Source: a phage | Length of the DNA: 64,000 nt | Sequence record: OZ346219.1 | Reading direction: 5' to 3' (one strand) | In this document: in pieces, positions 26,978-54,369 of the stretch | Numbering within the stretch: the stretch's first letter is position 1 | Layout of the letters: every line of letters begins with the position of its first letter | Translations under genes and position numbers: made by a program | The notes under the pieces: model-generated | What the model saw: only the letters and a program-made list of their open reading frames with translations | Database searches by the model: none | Told to the model about the DNA's origin: nothing

Positions 26978-26985
26978 TATTTATA
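26978..26985 (-). promoter_or_regulatory. T4-type late promoter TATAAATA (minus strand) inside the loop of a 9-bp inverted repeat
   Basis: Plus strand tatttata at 26978-26985; flanking CCCCAGATT / AATCTGGGG arms. Confidence 0.5.
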
Positions 26986-32402: not shown

Positions 32403-32430
32403 TATTCACCCCCTTTGTGAGTGATAATAT

Positions 32431-32622
32431 TTAGATTCCGGCGATCCTGCATAGAGTTCTTGTATTAGCACCAATAAGGATAGCATTAACGACAACCATT
32501 CCCCAATCAACCCACTGATTATTATAAATGCTAAACCCGTTTGCAAGACCAAATACAAGCATTCCGGTACACATACTCAGAGCAATAATCAACATCACGG
32601 TAAAACCAAATGCAAATCTCAT
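32431..32622 (-). CDS. Small hydrophobic membrane protein
   Basis: 63 aa, two predicted TM helices. Confidence 0.4.
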   Translation of the reverse strand: MRFAFGFTVMLIIALSMCTGMLVFGLANGFSIYNNQWVDWGMVVVNAILIGANTRTLCRIAGI

Positions 32623-35727: not shown

Positions 35728-35913
35728 TCAGAAATATGCAATATAGTTTGCCAGTCCTACAGAGTCATCATTCGGCATTGCTTTTACTGCCAGTTCAAAC
35801 CCTGCTTCAACTTTCTGTTTAGCGGATTCTTCGTTATAACCCCAGATTACCAGAATAGCTACTACGTTTTCTTTGCTTACTGCTTTCAGTGCTTTAGTGA
35901 TGCGACGTGCCAT
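35728..35913 (-). CDS. Hypothetical protein
   Basis: 61-aa ORF. Confidence 0.35.
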   Translation of the reverse strand: MARRITKALKAVSKENVVAILVIWGYNEESAKQKVEAGFELAVKAMPNDDSVGLANYIAYF

Positions 35914-35959
35914 AATTTGATTCTCCGTTTAAGAAAGTGTGTTTCGTTTCGATGGGTGT

Positions 35960-35988
35960 ATTATGCTATAGGCCGGATCTGGTGTCAA
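35960..35988 (-). promoter_or_regulatory. Sigma70-like early promoter
   Basis: rc: TTGACA-17-CATAAT. Confidence 0.5.
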
Positions 35989-36013
35989 CAACTTTTTTAA
36001 AAAAATTTTAGGC

Positions 36014-36040
36014 AATAAAAAAGCCACTCCGAAGAGTGGC
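36014..36040 (-). terminator. Rho-independent terminator
   Basis: GCCACUCUUCGGAGUGGC hairpin + UUUUUUAUU. Confidence 0.65.
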
Positions 36041-36185
36041 TTATAGGGAAGGTAGCGAATCTTCCTTGTCTCCAACCTGCTAGCGGCCTAGCAAGTTAAT
36101 GCTTTAGCGTACCGGATCGCCCATACGCCGCAATAAATGCGGCTAGGTGACGTCCAAATCATTCTAACCGCGCTGTCTTTAGTTC
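36041..36185 (-). ncRNA. Candidate small structured RNA (about 145 nt) between a late-promoter-like TATAAATA and a terminator
   Basis: GC-rich relative to surroundings, 3 or more hairpins (GCCGCA-TTTAT-TGCGGC, GCTAG-CGGC-CTAGC, GGAAG...CTTCC), no ORF longer than 24 codons. Confidence 0.3.
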
Positions 36186-36189
36186 ACTA

Positions 36190-36408
36190 TTATTTATATC
36201 GCTTTCTATCGCGACGTTTTTGGTCTTCTTCCTTGATAGAGTTAAATGCATCAAAAAGACACATGACACTAATAATAAACATAACCGTATTTTCTACGAT
36301 ATCCCACGGCTTCGCATCAGTACAGATCCCCCAAACGGTAAGAAATGCAAATAAGGCAGAAGAGATCACAAGAATGATACTTGCTAAGATATAAAAAGTC
36401 ATTTTCAT
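36190..36408 (-). CDS. Small hydrophobic membrane protein
   Basis: 72 aa. Confidence 0.4.
   Translation of the reverse strand: MKMTFYILASIILVISSALFAFLTVWGICTDAKPWDIVENTVMFIISVMCLFDAFNSIKEEDQKRRDRKRYK
36191..36198 (-). promoter_or_regulatory. T4-type late promoter TATAAATA (minus strand)
   Basis: Plus strand tatttata at 36191-36198, overlapping stop of ORF 36190..36408. Confidence 0.45.
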
Positions 36409-36599
36409 GGTTTTACCTCAATTCTTCGATATTCATCACACATCCACGCAGTAAGCAAGAATCCCAGCACATAAGAAACAAAATACGTTAATGCTTCTTC
36501 TGGTTTCGTGCTATGTATCATCAGTAAACCAGCGAGAACGGTCTTAACAATTACATTTAAAATAATTAGCCACGCAAATAATTTCATCGTTTGCCCCAT
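36405..36599 (-). CDS. Small hydrophobic membrane protein
   Basis: 64 aa. Confidence 0.4.
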   Translation of the reverse strand: MGQTMKLFAWLIILNVIVKTVLAGLLMIHSTKPEEALTYFVSYVLGFLLTAWMCDEYRRIEVKP

Positions 36600-36823
36600 T
36601 TCGGTCGAGTCTTTTCAAACTTATACATTCCGTAACAATCTCGAATCATCCACGTAACAAGAGCACCAGTCAACACAGACAATACACAGAAGAAGTAAAA
36701 CGGTCCGGTTGCATTATCAACATGAGCAAGCCAGGTAAAGAAAACACATGCTAAGAATGTAAAGAACATCATAAAACACAAGAAAGCAAAATATTTTATG
36801 CTACTCATAGCGCCACCATACAA
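36584..36823 (-). CDS. Small hydrophobic membrane protein
   Basis: 79 aa. Confidence 0.4.
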   Translation of the reverse strand: MYGGAMSSIKYFAFLCFMMFFTFLACVFFTWLAHVDNATGPFYFFCVLSVLTGALVTWMIRDCYGMYKFEKTRPKWGKR

Positions 36824-36911
36824 CAGATCATAAGAAAACCAAACGCAATAAGAATTGCATCAAATTTAGTGAACTCAGGTCCACCTATCAACATCATTCG
36901 TTCTATTTCGT

Positions 36912-37154
36912 TCATAGCGTACAAAGCCATTTAAAAGCACCACATAAAGCGATCAAAAGACTAGGTATAAACGAGATTACAACAAGACCAAAAAAATCAT
37001 CTAAGGTAACACCGGAATAGCTACCTACTGTAACAACACCGATCATCAGACACAGAAAGAAAACAAATGCAAGCATAAACAAAGTATTGCTAAACAGTTT
37101 AGTGATCATTAGACACCCCACGACGATCAATTTCAAAAACTTTTTTATCATCAA
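36912..37154 (-). CDS. Small hydrophobic membrane protein
   Basis: 80 aa. Confidence 0.4.
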   Translation of the reverse strand: MMIKKFLKLIVVGCLMITKLFSNTLFMLAFVFFLCLMIGVVTVGSYSGVTLDDFFGLVVISFIPSLLIALCGAFKWLCTL

Positions 37155-43549: not shown

Positions 43550-43557
43550 TATAAATA
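43550..43557 (+). promoter_or_regulatory. T4-type late promoter TATAAATA upstream of gene 53
   Basis: Exact TATAAATA about 33 nt before gp53 ATG. Confidence 0.6.
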
Positions 43558-54361: not shown

Positions 54362-54369
54362 TATAAATA
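54362..54369 (+). promoter_or_regulatory. T4-type late promoter TATAAATA upstream of gene 9
   Basis: Exact TATAAATA about 28 nt before gp9 ATG. Confidence 0.6.

Follow-up and report, generated by a model that had tools for sequence, protein, structure and literature searches.

A tightly conserved, structured non-coding element of RB49-like phages, very probably a previously undescribed RNA gene

Some bacterial small RNAs are encoded within the 3' UTRs of mRNAs; DapZ and MicL are of this type, each transcribed from a promoter of its own that lies within the upstream gene or at its end. In phage T4, the tRNA genes and the genes rnaC and rnaD, which specify the species 1 and 2 stable RNAs (139 and 119 nt), lie between genes 57A/57B and e. 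Both stable RNAs belong to the tRNA cluster, and rnaC has a tRNA-like T-arm (GGTTCGAATCC). A 2010 review noted that T4 had yielded no characterised trans-acting regulatory RNA and that candidates might come from related genomes (PMC3014915). The T4-related phages RB49 and phi1 carry PeSLs, cassettes of ~100 bp that combine an early promoter with a stem-loop (Arbiol et al. 2010, PMC2839356), and the region considered here is described as hyperplastic, with frequent cassette exchange (PMC2839356).

The locus described below lies within 64,000 nucleotides of sequence record OZ346219.1 (the window), which derives from an RB49-like Krischvirus that is 99.8% identical to phage kaaroe. It is found between genes 57A/1/3 and the lysozyme gene. 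Judged from its sequence, it is very probably a previously undescribed phage RNA gene of ~170 nt; in public genomes the element is unannotated or mis-annotated as small hypothetical proteins. Its parts and immediate surroundings are as follows.

37978-37950 and 37530-37502, minus strand: two upstream early promoters, whose transcripts include dmd
36190..36408, minus strand: 72-aa hydrophobic ORF that closes the early operon and holds the promoter motif at its 3' end
36199-36014, minus strand: conserved block and proposed transcription unit, from promoter motif to terminator end
36191..36198, minus strand: T4-type late promoter motif TATAAATA, exact match, present in 29 of 30 loci
36172..36186, minus strand: 5' leader UGAACUAAAGACAGC, predicted by folding to be single-stranded
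36139..36171, minus strand: hairpin 1, with 8- and 4-bp stems and a UUGGAC apical loop
36106..36129, minus strand: hairpin 2, with a 7-bp basal stem and a variable tip
36071..36099, minus strand: hairpin 3, with an 8-bp core (CUUGCUAG/CUAGCAGG) and a GCCG loop
36043..36070, minus strand: invariant 28-nt tract ACAAGGAAGAUUCGCUACCUUCCCUAUA between hairpin 3 and the terminator
36014..36042, minus strand: intrinsic terminator, with a 9-bp stem (36042-36021), a UUCG loop and the U-run UUUUUUAUU
35960..35988, minus strand: next early sigma-70-type promoter (TTGACA, 17 nt, CATAAT), annotated in phage GEC-3S

The initial annotation had described a G+C-rich non-coding stretch that contains several stable hairpins, opens with a late-promoter motif overlapping the stop codon of the upstream ORF and closes with a terminator, and all of these features are borne out. 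G+C content is 49.7%, compared with a window mean of 40.2% (sd 4.2%, 147-nt windows), and 1.8% of 147-nt windows are as G+C-rich. The exact motif TATAAATA (36198-36191) overlies the end of the 72-aa ORF, running from its last two sense codons into its stop and sharing 2 nt with the TAA (36192-36190). The terminator folds at -14.8 kcal/mol (z -6.0). Beyond it, the promoter at 35960..35988, itself part of the repeated PeSL, drives a 61-aa ORF (35913..35728) and forms the downstream edge of the locus.

Comparison with PeSLs shows a partial likeness. Between 36042 and 35914 the locus has the PeSL layout: a terminator hairpin leads into an AT-rich spacer, which is followed by a TTGACA/CATAAT promoter and then a Shine-Dalgarno site. 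Within the window, however, repeats extend over 35999-35916 only; the terminator, which is absent from the repeated promoter cassette and unique to the element, is single-copy, as are the preceding 150 nt, and unlike the spacer both are under strong constraint. A PeSL length of ~100 bp also leaves the extra 150 nt of the element unexplained, and membership of the repeated PeSL is rejected for everything upstream of 35999. Another parallel is with DapZ and MicL. In both cases the end of the upstream ORF overlaps a promoter, the intrinsic terminator of the mRNA is shared, one sequence serves as 3' UTR and as separate RNA (the latter predicted here), and the tract adjacent to the terminator is conserved. 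Unlike those RNAs, the element has a phage late (gp55-type) motif rather than a host sigma-factor site as its promoter, and it is longer and more structured, with four stable hairpins in ~170 nt.

T4 rnaC and rnaD likewise encode small non-coding RNAs of a T4-type phage, in the same interval between 57A and the lysozyme gene and of similar size. In contrast to them, the element has no tRNA neighbours and no T-loop, and its 3' end is an intrinsic terminator. Homology to rnaC or rnaD is rejected: MAFFT alignment yields only scattered identities, and an nhmmer profile of the element finds nothing on T4 70908-71171, its best match in the T4 locus (E = 1.1) lying elsewhere. Rfam has no rnaC or rnaD models and hence provides no test of this homology. 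ARAGORN predicts no genes in the 64-kb window, which rejects a tRNA or tmRNA identity, and RF00005 has no match in 35850-36350 even at E <= 10. Rfam 15 gives no match at gathering score in the window, in a scan whose positive control recovered 8 of 8 T4 tRNAs. The sub-threshold matches to EF3314_EF3315, Ysr49, RNAI and STnc100 score 19-24 bits against gathering scores of 47-100 (the best, 23.6 bits against 100); these families share with the element stem-loops followed by an intrinsic terminator, but the alignments are carried by the terminator hairpin. The earlier statement that the stretch contains no tRNA thus agrees with both ARAGORN and RF00005, and the covariance search that had been proposed as a check identifies no known RNA family at gathering score. 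The suggested link to the T4 tRNA and stable-RNA cluster holds for the shared position and fails for sequence and architecture, as there is no similarity to rnaC or rnaD and no tRNA in the window.

The element is specific to Krischvirus phages. All 59 of the 59 Krischvirus genomes carry the 151-nt stretch as a single copy at 95-100% identity, and the element also occurs in 8 metagenomic contigs, whose 72-aa ORF is 79-90% identical. No match was found in the other phages searched or in plasmids. Among E. coli genomes the sole similarity is a 26-nt terminator-like match in 32 genomes, and the exact 29-nt hairpin-3 pattern, the sole query used against GTDB genome contigs, was not found there. A host origin or mimicry of the element is rejected on these E. 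coli, plasmid and GTDB-pattern scans. Searches for more distant homologues in IMG/VR, metagenomes and proteins returned only lineages with a flanking ORF at least 79% identical. One contig (L024) has an odd 49-nt end without any match.

Purifying selection on the element is very strong, far above that on the adjacent genes. In the non-coding core outside the 25-nt hairpin tip, 5 of 151 sites vary and mean pairwise divergence is 0.004. The corresponding values for the two upstream ORFs are 56 of 132 sites and 0.080 at third codon positions (Fisher p = 1.5e-16 against the core) and 49 of 266 sites and 0.0375 at first and second positions (3e-6); within the 72-aa ORF alone, 37 of 72 third positions vary. 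The element is therefore ~20-fold more tightly conserved than neighbouring synonymous sites. The sole fast-evolving patch is the tip of hairpin 2 (36131-36107), where 11 of 25 sites vary and divergence reaches 0.127, the neutral level. Because this patch is embedded in the core, low core diversity does not reflect recent shared ancestry. The conserved block coincides exactly with the proposed transcription unit: the nearest variable sites are position 36200 upstream and, downstream, the T/A-run spacer beyond 36014. This match lifts the candidate well above a mere pattern match. Loops and linkers are as invariant as stems. Taken together, we consider it highly likely that a functional, selected non-coding element exists at this locus.

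The stretch is non-coding and contains no conserved ORF, in keeping with the earlier statement that it lacks a long one. Downstream of the 72-aa ORF, the same frame meets three successive stops (TAA TAG TGA), and both remaining frames are stopped within 35 nt. The only ORF wholly within the stretch has 24 codons (36162..36088), and since relatives carry 1- and 2-nt indels in it, it is not coding. A 48-codon ORF with a TTG start (36075..35929) begins in the stretch but reads on across both the terminator and the promoter that follows, and homopolymer-length differences between relatives disrupt it. A small protein is rejected on these frame-breaking indels and because the ORFs called here differ between genomes.

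As RNA, the stretch as a whole reaches -66.3 kcal/mol (z -3.9), a value equalled by none of 200 shuffles, and folding of the antisense strand is weaker (-59.2 kcal/mol). The four hairpins are individually stable, with z between -3.2 and -6.0 for hairpins 1, 2, 3 and the terminator. The 5' leader has one polymorphic position, which is G, A or a one-base gap in alignments. Hairpin 1 (-14.9 kcal/mol, z -3.6) has invariant stems and a single loop change, C>U in L029. Hairpin 2 (-12.6 kcal/mol, z -3.5) occurs in 13 distinct versions among the first 21 loci, all of which fold alike at -8 to -13.5 kcal/mol, with tip indels of 1-2 nt. The core of hairpin 3 (-14.9 kcal/mol, z -3.2) is invariant, with one loop change (C>U, L035); its 4-bp outer extension includes part of UUGGAG, and an outer C-G pair is broken in the window and in AV108. 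The terminator loop has a single change, C>A in L036. The tract at 36070-36043, which separates hairpin 3 from the terminator, forms only a weak 5-bp hairpin, GGAAG/CUUCC (36065-36047; -1.3 kcal/mol, z -1.75), and shows three changes among 21 distinct sequences: C>U in G37-3, insertion of one C in PHB13, and in L029 an A>G that retains a G-U pair. This tract is a candidate interaction region.

Substitutions across the element either sit in loops and linkers or retain pairing through wobble. One pair of hairpin 2 runs through G-C, G-U and A-U, and that hairpin has two more wobble changes; over the whole element, four one-sided changes apart from that pair retain G-U pairing. Pairing is kept in 98.6% of cells, against 29-45% with slid partners. 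Covariation is weak: the one pair changed on both sides is reached by 128 of 500 shuffles and the covariation score by 11 of 500, and four of the five helices are nearly invariant and so uninformative in this respect.

Two routes of transcription are possible. Exact copies of TATAAATA number 4 in the window against 5.8 expected, which is not above chance. The other three, however, lie on the correct strand 28-38 nt upstream of the ATGs of rI, gp53 and gp9, canonical promoter positions that point to a real late signal in this genome. The copy at 36198-36191 is on this basis a credible late promoter, with a start that we place, on the presumed analogy of T4 late promoters, at ~36185/36184. The codons for Tyr-Lys-stop partly force TATAAATA at this site. 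In one contig (L023, MAVA01000028.1) a 14-nt deletion that ends exactly at the U of UGAAC removes TATAAATA and leaves the element intact, so late transcription is dispensable in that lineage or the contig contains an error. The second route is read-through from the early promoters, whose transcripts, including dmd, meet no minus-strand terminator between 37995 and 36042; if the annotated promoters work, the element is thus also the 3' UTR of the early dmd operon, and the element RNA could arise in two ways, of which discrete late transcription is one. A search of the literature found no transcript or expression data for any Krischvirus. A role as a read-through (antitermination) element for the lysozyme gene is not called for, as that gene has its own late motif, with one mismatch, 28 nt upstream of its ATG.

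We regard the locus as probably a functional RNA locus, with a transcription unit at 36199-36014 whose product acts as RNA. Early in infection, the RNA would form the 3' UTR of dmd-operon transcripts; at late times, a discrete RNA would arise from the gp55-type promoter TATAAATA, starting near 36185 and ending near 36016. This layout would match that of bacterial 3'-UTR small RNAs transcribed from a promoter of their own where the upstream gene ends. The RNA may act through sequence-specific contacts, as suggested by loops and linkers that are as invariant as the stems, and these contacts could be made by the weakly structured 28 nt at 36070-36043 and by the hairpin loops. A seed at the 5' end is disfavoured, since the leader there is one of the few places that vary. 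In the most likely mode, the RNA would regulate in trans by pairing with a host or phage partner or by sequestering it; with base pairing and protein binding taken together, we lean slightly towards action in trans. The initial proposal of a small RNA is supported insofar as the stretch is non-coding, structured, bounded by a promoter and a terminator, and neither a tRNA nor an Rfam family. It is qualified by the predicted second role as the 3' UTR of an early operon and by the L023 variant without TATAAATA. Only tentatively might the locus represent the first gene of a T4-type phage dedicated to a regulatory small RNA: driven by a late promoter, genus-wide, acting in trans on phage gene expression or on the host late in infection and placed in the interval of the T4 tRNAs and stable RNAs, yet unrelated to them.

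A purely cis-acting 3' UTR would explain part of the same evidence. The hairpins would then control the fate of the early dmd-operon mRNA, by blocking 3' exonucleases or guiding processing by RNase E or RegB, with no separate RNA function and with TATAAATA as a by-product of the Tyr-Lys-stop codons. Such a role fits the predicted transcription of the element as the 3' end of the early operon and the survival of the element in L023 without the late promoter, and it draws on a GGAG in the linker after hairpin 3 in a phage that encodes RegB-type RNA endonucleases. An exonuclease barrier, however, needs a stable 3' hairpin, not 150 nt with invariant loops and linkers; the conserved block starts exactly at the promoter motif rather than at the stop codon; and every other exact copy of TATAAATA in the 64 kb appears, by its position, to be a real promoter. 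The GGAG context is also a poor RegB site: GGAGACAAGGA (36073-36063) matches 8 of 11 positions of the RegB/S1 consensus GGAGRAYARAA (PMC1702504), carries at position 6 a disfavoured C that is rare in good RegB sites (PMC1702504), and has its first bases paired in the consensus fold, being partly paired in most genomes. The idea of a RegB site has no support beyond chance, and we consider the purely cis-acting explanation rather unlikely. A second alternative is a sub-case of the trans-acting RNA with a different mode of action, namely a decoy or scaffold whose invariant loops sequester host CsrA, ProQ, Hfq or an RNase, or a phage protein. It accords with the near-total invariance of loops and linkers, the compact multi-hairpin shape with little single strand, the GGA in the apical loop of hairpin 1 and the ACAAGGA in the pre-terminator tract. 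The A-rich sequence 5' of the terminator is able to base-pair with the U-tail, a feature that we take to resemble ProQ ligands and treat as a lead. The lack of an mRNA target in the window points the same way. In a full-length duplex scan of 260 translation-start regions in the 64 kb, the best value was -49 kcal/mol and none rose above the shuffles (mean -46, best -53 kcal/mol), the lone stronger value (-126 kcal/mol) being the antisense strand of the element itself at 36137; exact complementary k-mers to the free tract are likewise at chance level in the window. The absence of a pairing target is nevertheless weak evidence, because the scan covered 64 kb of a ~164-kb phage and the host genome lies outside it. 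The four GGA motifs in 170 nt, one of them in an apical loop, show no enrichment over the ~2.9 that base composition predicts, on which ground a CsrA-sponge RNA is rejected. Overall, a decoy or scaffold is an unlikely mode.

It is very unlikely that the element acts as DNA rather than as RNA, for instance as an origin of replication, a site of recombination or a binding site for a protein. Sequence conservation is extreme irrespective of predicted pairing, and the region is one of frequent cassette exchange (PMC2839356), yet the repeats of that exchange start only at 35999. The G+C-rich island downstream of a promoter would also suit a DNA element, and T4 R-loop origins are loosely alike in this arrangement. 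Against this, five of five one-sided changes in stems leave G-U pairs in the sense strand, where the opposite strand would have A-C mismatches, folding favours the sense strand by 7 kcal/mol, the fast-evolving patch is exactly a hairpin tip whose fold is kept, and the block ends in an RNA signal, the U-run of a terminator. That the locus is left over from a lost gene or a tRNA and stable-RNA cluster and is decaying, or else is a short translated ORF, with no RNA function at present in either case, is hardly credible: its position matches that of the T4 tRNA-rnaC-rnaD region and some annotators call small ORFs here, but purifying selection far exceeds that on the adjacent genes, there is no similarity to tRNA, rnaC or rnaD, and the called ORFs vary by genome and are broken by 1-2-nt indels.

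The probable RNA locus is a concrete candidate, with sharp boundaries, a predicted start and end, four hairpins, a free tract and a natural promoter-deletion variant. It belongs to a group of phages that is used for therapy, and selective constraint above that on the neighbouring proteins suggests that a phenotype is likely to exist. The annotation of the element in public genomes, where it is absent or replaced by small hypothetical proteins, can be corrected. Joint arrival of the element with the downstream 61-aa gene is rejected by comparison with T1-like phages, which have homologues of this gene that are 72-80% identical; there, the homologue follows a methyltransferase gene across a 60-nt gap that is free of any such element.

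The window shares 99.8% identity with Escherichia phage kaaroe and 98% with RB49, Phi1 and JSE, which all belong to the genus Krischvirus (Straboviridae). Genes around the locus run on the minus strand, with genes 3, 1 and 57A on one side, the lysozyme gene on the other and small early genes between them. The initial annotation, which proposed a small RNA here, placed the locus in the T4 region for tRNAs and stable RNAs; the interval is indeed the one that holds eight tRNA genes, rnaD and rnaC in T4, but the element has no similarity to rnaC or rnaD. Unlike the element, both of these lie within the tRNA cluster, and rnaC has a tRNA-like T-arm. ARAGORN, a check named in that annotation, found no tRNA gene in the whole 64 kb, in line with its failure to build one. 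The locus comprises the following features.

37978-37950 and 37530-37502, minus: two early promoters upstream of the element
36198-36191, minus: late-promoter motif TATAAATA, overlapping the TAA stop of the 72-aa ORF (36408..36190)
36171-36139, minus: hairpin 1
36129-36106, minus: hairpin 2, whose tip is a 25-nt variable patch (36131-36107)
36099-36071, minus: hairpin 3
36042-36021, minus: terminator, a 9-bp stem with a UUCG loop, followed by a U-run
35988-35960, minus: consensus early promoter driving the 61-aa ORF, separated from the terminator by an AT-rich spacer

The late motif at the ORF stop and the strong terminator were thus found as first described. Between them lie about 150 nt (initially given as about 145) without a conserved ORF and with stops in all three frames after the motif, and the described GC-richness holds at 49.7% G+C versus 40.2% for the window (top 1.8% of 147-nt windows). 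No minus-strand terminator lies between the upstream early promoters and 36042, so the element is also the 3' UTR of an early operon coding for Dmd and a row of small hydrophobic proteins. Downstream of dmd, five ORFs of 41-80 aa are arranged in tandem with partial overlap (36190-37154, minus); those inspected resemble small hydrophobic membrane proteins, and the 64- and 72-aa ORFs evolve fast, with 18% of first and second codon positions variable among close relatives.

The 151-nt stretch is present in one copy per genome in 59 of 59 Krischvirus records, at 95-100% identity, and was found neither in phage records outside the genus nor in plasmids; E. coli genomes matched only a 26-nt terminator-like piece, the window holds no paralogue, and a scan of GTDB genome contigs with the exact 29-nt hairpin-3 pattern returned nothing. 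Pattern scans and a flanking-protein search added eight metagenomic contigs, for a set of 30 loci with 23 distinct versions. All eight carry the element, while their 72-aa ORF is just 79-90% identical.

Variable positions and mean pairwise divergence by site class (alignment of 19 sequences, about 950 nt).
Third codon positions, two upstream ORFs: 56/132 variable; 0.080
First and second codon positions, two upstream ORFs: 49/266 variable; 0.0375
Non-coding block minus the 25-nt patch: 5/151 variable; 0.004
25-nt patch, 36131-36107: 11/25 variable; 0.127

The non-coding core is less variable than third positions (Fisher p = 1.5e-16) and than first and second positions (p = 3e-6). Since the block encloses a patch evolving at a neutral rate, a recent sweep or segment transfer cannot account for the scarcity of variation in the rest, which reflects constraint. 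Against the most divergent contig, the non-coding stretch is 91.9% and the 72-aa ORF 79.6% identical, with 10 of the 12 non-coding differences falling within the patch. The last upstream variable site, 36200, is one base off the promoter motif; downstream, variation returns in the T/A-run spacer past the terminator, with changes in 33% of spacer-plus-promoter columns. With these sharp edges, the selected block coincides with the unit from late promoter to end of terminator.

Folding bears out the stable hairpins first noted: the whole stretch reaches -66.3 kcal/mol (z = -3.9), against -59.2 kcal/mol for the antisense strand. Hairpins 1, 2 and 3 and the terminator each give -12.6 to -14.9 kcal/mol (z -3.2 to -6.0), unusual for their composition, and RNAalifold found the same helices. 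A GGAAG/CUUCC pairing at 36065-36047 is weak (-1.3 kcal/mol), and the invariant tract of about 28 nt just before the terminator is probably largely unpaired. Across 21 distinct sequences, standard pairs occupy 98.6% of cells, versus 29-45% with partners slid by 1-3 columns. One pair of hairpin 2 is G-C in 18 sequences, G-U in one and A-U in two, so that a compensatory change is seen together with the wobble step between its two states. Each of four further one-sided changes in stems preserves pairing as G-U; on the opposite strand these would be A-C mismatches. A stem is broken just once, in the outermost extension of hairpin 3, and the other substitutions outside the patch affect linkers or the loops of hairpins 1 and 3 and of the terminator. 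The 13 distinct versions of the hairpin 2 tip fold into one shared shape. At the present divergence four of five helices are nearly invariant, and formal covariation is weak (128 of 500 shuffles also gave one double-sided pair, and 11 of 500 reached the covariation score), so the fold rests on energy and the position of substitutions rather than on covariation. A GATC (Dam) site in the hairpin 2 tip (36107-36131, minus) comes and goes among relatives (GCGATCC, GTGATCC, TTAATCC, GTGACCC).

The stretch is not coding. A 24-codon ORF within it extends over the variable patch, in which relatives have 0, 1 or 2 additional bases; a 48-codon TTG ORF called by some annotators takes in both the terminator and the promoter after it, and homopolymer-length differences disrupt its frame. 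The plus strand has no ORF of at least 20 codons over 36014-36136.

Exact copies of TATAAATA number four in the window, versus 5.8 expected by chance, so the motif does not stand out by its frequency. The kaaroe annotation, mapped onto the window, places the other three as follows.

26978-26985, minus: before rI
43550-43557, plus: before gp53
54362-54369, plus: before gp9

All three lie 28-38 nt before the start codon, on the correct strand, with a Shine-Dalgarno sequence after each and none within coding sequence. As such positions make up an estimated 2% or so of the sequence, the exact motif acts like a true late promoter here, and it seems to be avoided or counter-selected elsewhere. At the element the motif is followed by TATAAATAATAG, a context similar to the one at the gp9 promoter, TATAAATAATAC. 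Its reading as a promoter at the element calls for caution on two counts: the codons Tyr-Lys-stop partly fix TATAAATA there, and one contig, described below, has lost it. A one-mismatch version, TCTAAATA, lies 28 nt before the lysozyme ATG (32428-32435, minus). The metagenomic Krischvirus contig MAVA01000028.1 (L023, 3330-3345, corresponding to window 36200-36187) carries a 14-nt deletion of GATATAAATAATAG ending exactly at UGAAC, with the element intact; its 72-aa ORF has two extra A in an A-run and ends in a different C-terminus, with loss of the late-promoter motif. If real, this deletion would make late transcription dispensable and put the functional 5' boundary at about the predicted start site.

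Most likely, the locus encodes a structured RNA of about 170 nt that would arise in two ways, as the 3' UTR of the dmd operon early in infection and as a discrete transcript from the predicted late promoter late in infection. Loops and linkers vary no more than stems do, suggesting sequence-specific contacts rather than a mere structural barrier; this argues against a role solely in cis in the early mRNA, which its 3' UTR position would allow and which we consider unlikely. We tentatively read the RNA as a trans-acting base-pairing regulator using the free tract before the terminator; complementary sites within the 64-kb window are at chance level. As a RegB site, the GGAG that follows hairpin 3 is mediocre. 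A protein-binding decoy or scaffold, to which specific contacts would also be suited, seems to us improbable; GGA motifs are not enriched in the element. An element acting as DNA is very improbable beside the conserved fold.

Consistent with the initial proposal, Rfam gave no family at gathering score, lenient matches of 19-24 bits being due to the terminator. Literature searches on RB49 and Krischvirus small RNAs and transcriptomes, on PeSLs and on phage-encoded or noncoding RNAs of T4-type phages turned up nothing on the element, and according to a 2010 review of T4 post-transcriptional control (PMC3014915) no trans-acting regulatory RNA had been characterised in T4-type phages. Small RNAs driven by a promoter of their own where the preceding gene ends are a known kind; the present RNA family is new.

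Similarity to the PeSL cassettes, repeated early promoter and stem-loop units of RB49 and phi1 (PMC2839356), starts only at 35999, so the terminator is part of the conserved unit and not of the mobile cassette. The contig OQVL01013596.1 (L024, 1-49, following window 36066) follows the element as far as hairpin 3 and GGTTGGAGAC and then continues to the contig end with 49 nt that have no match in the phage collection; either the contig end is chimeric, or the sequence comes from a recombinant without the last tract and the terminator. Homologues of the 61-aa ORF (Pfam DUF7421), 72-80% identical, occur in about 115 genomes of T1-like Drexlerviridae, where they follow a DNA methyltransferase gene. 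The element is absent beside these close homologues and was rejected as a companion of the gene, which looks like part of a promoter-flanked cassette exchanged between a myovirus genus and a siphovirus family. Four metagenomic contigs (L030, L031, L032 and L033) are short assemblies ending 170-250 nt past the 72-aa ORF, at the repeated early-promoter cassette, consistent with such cassettes breaking assemblies.
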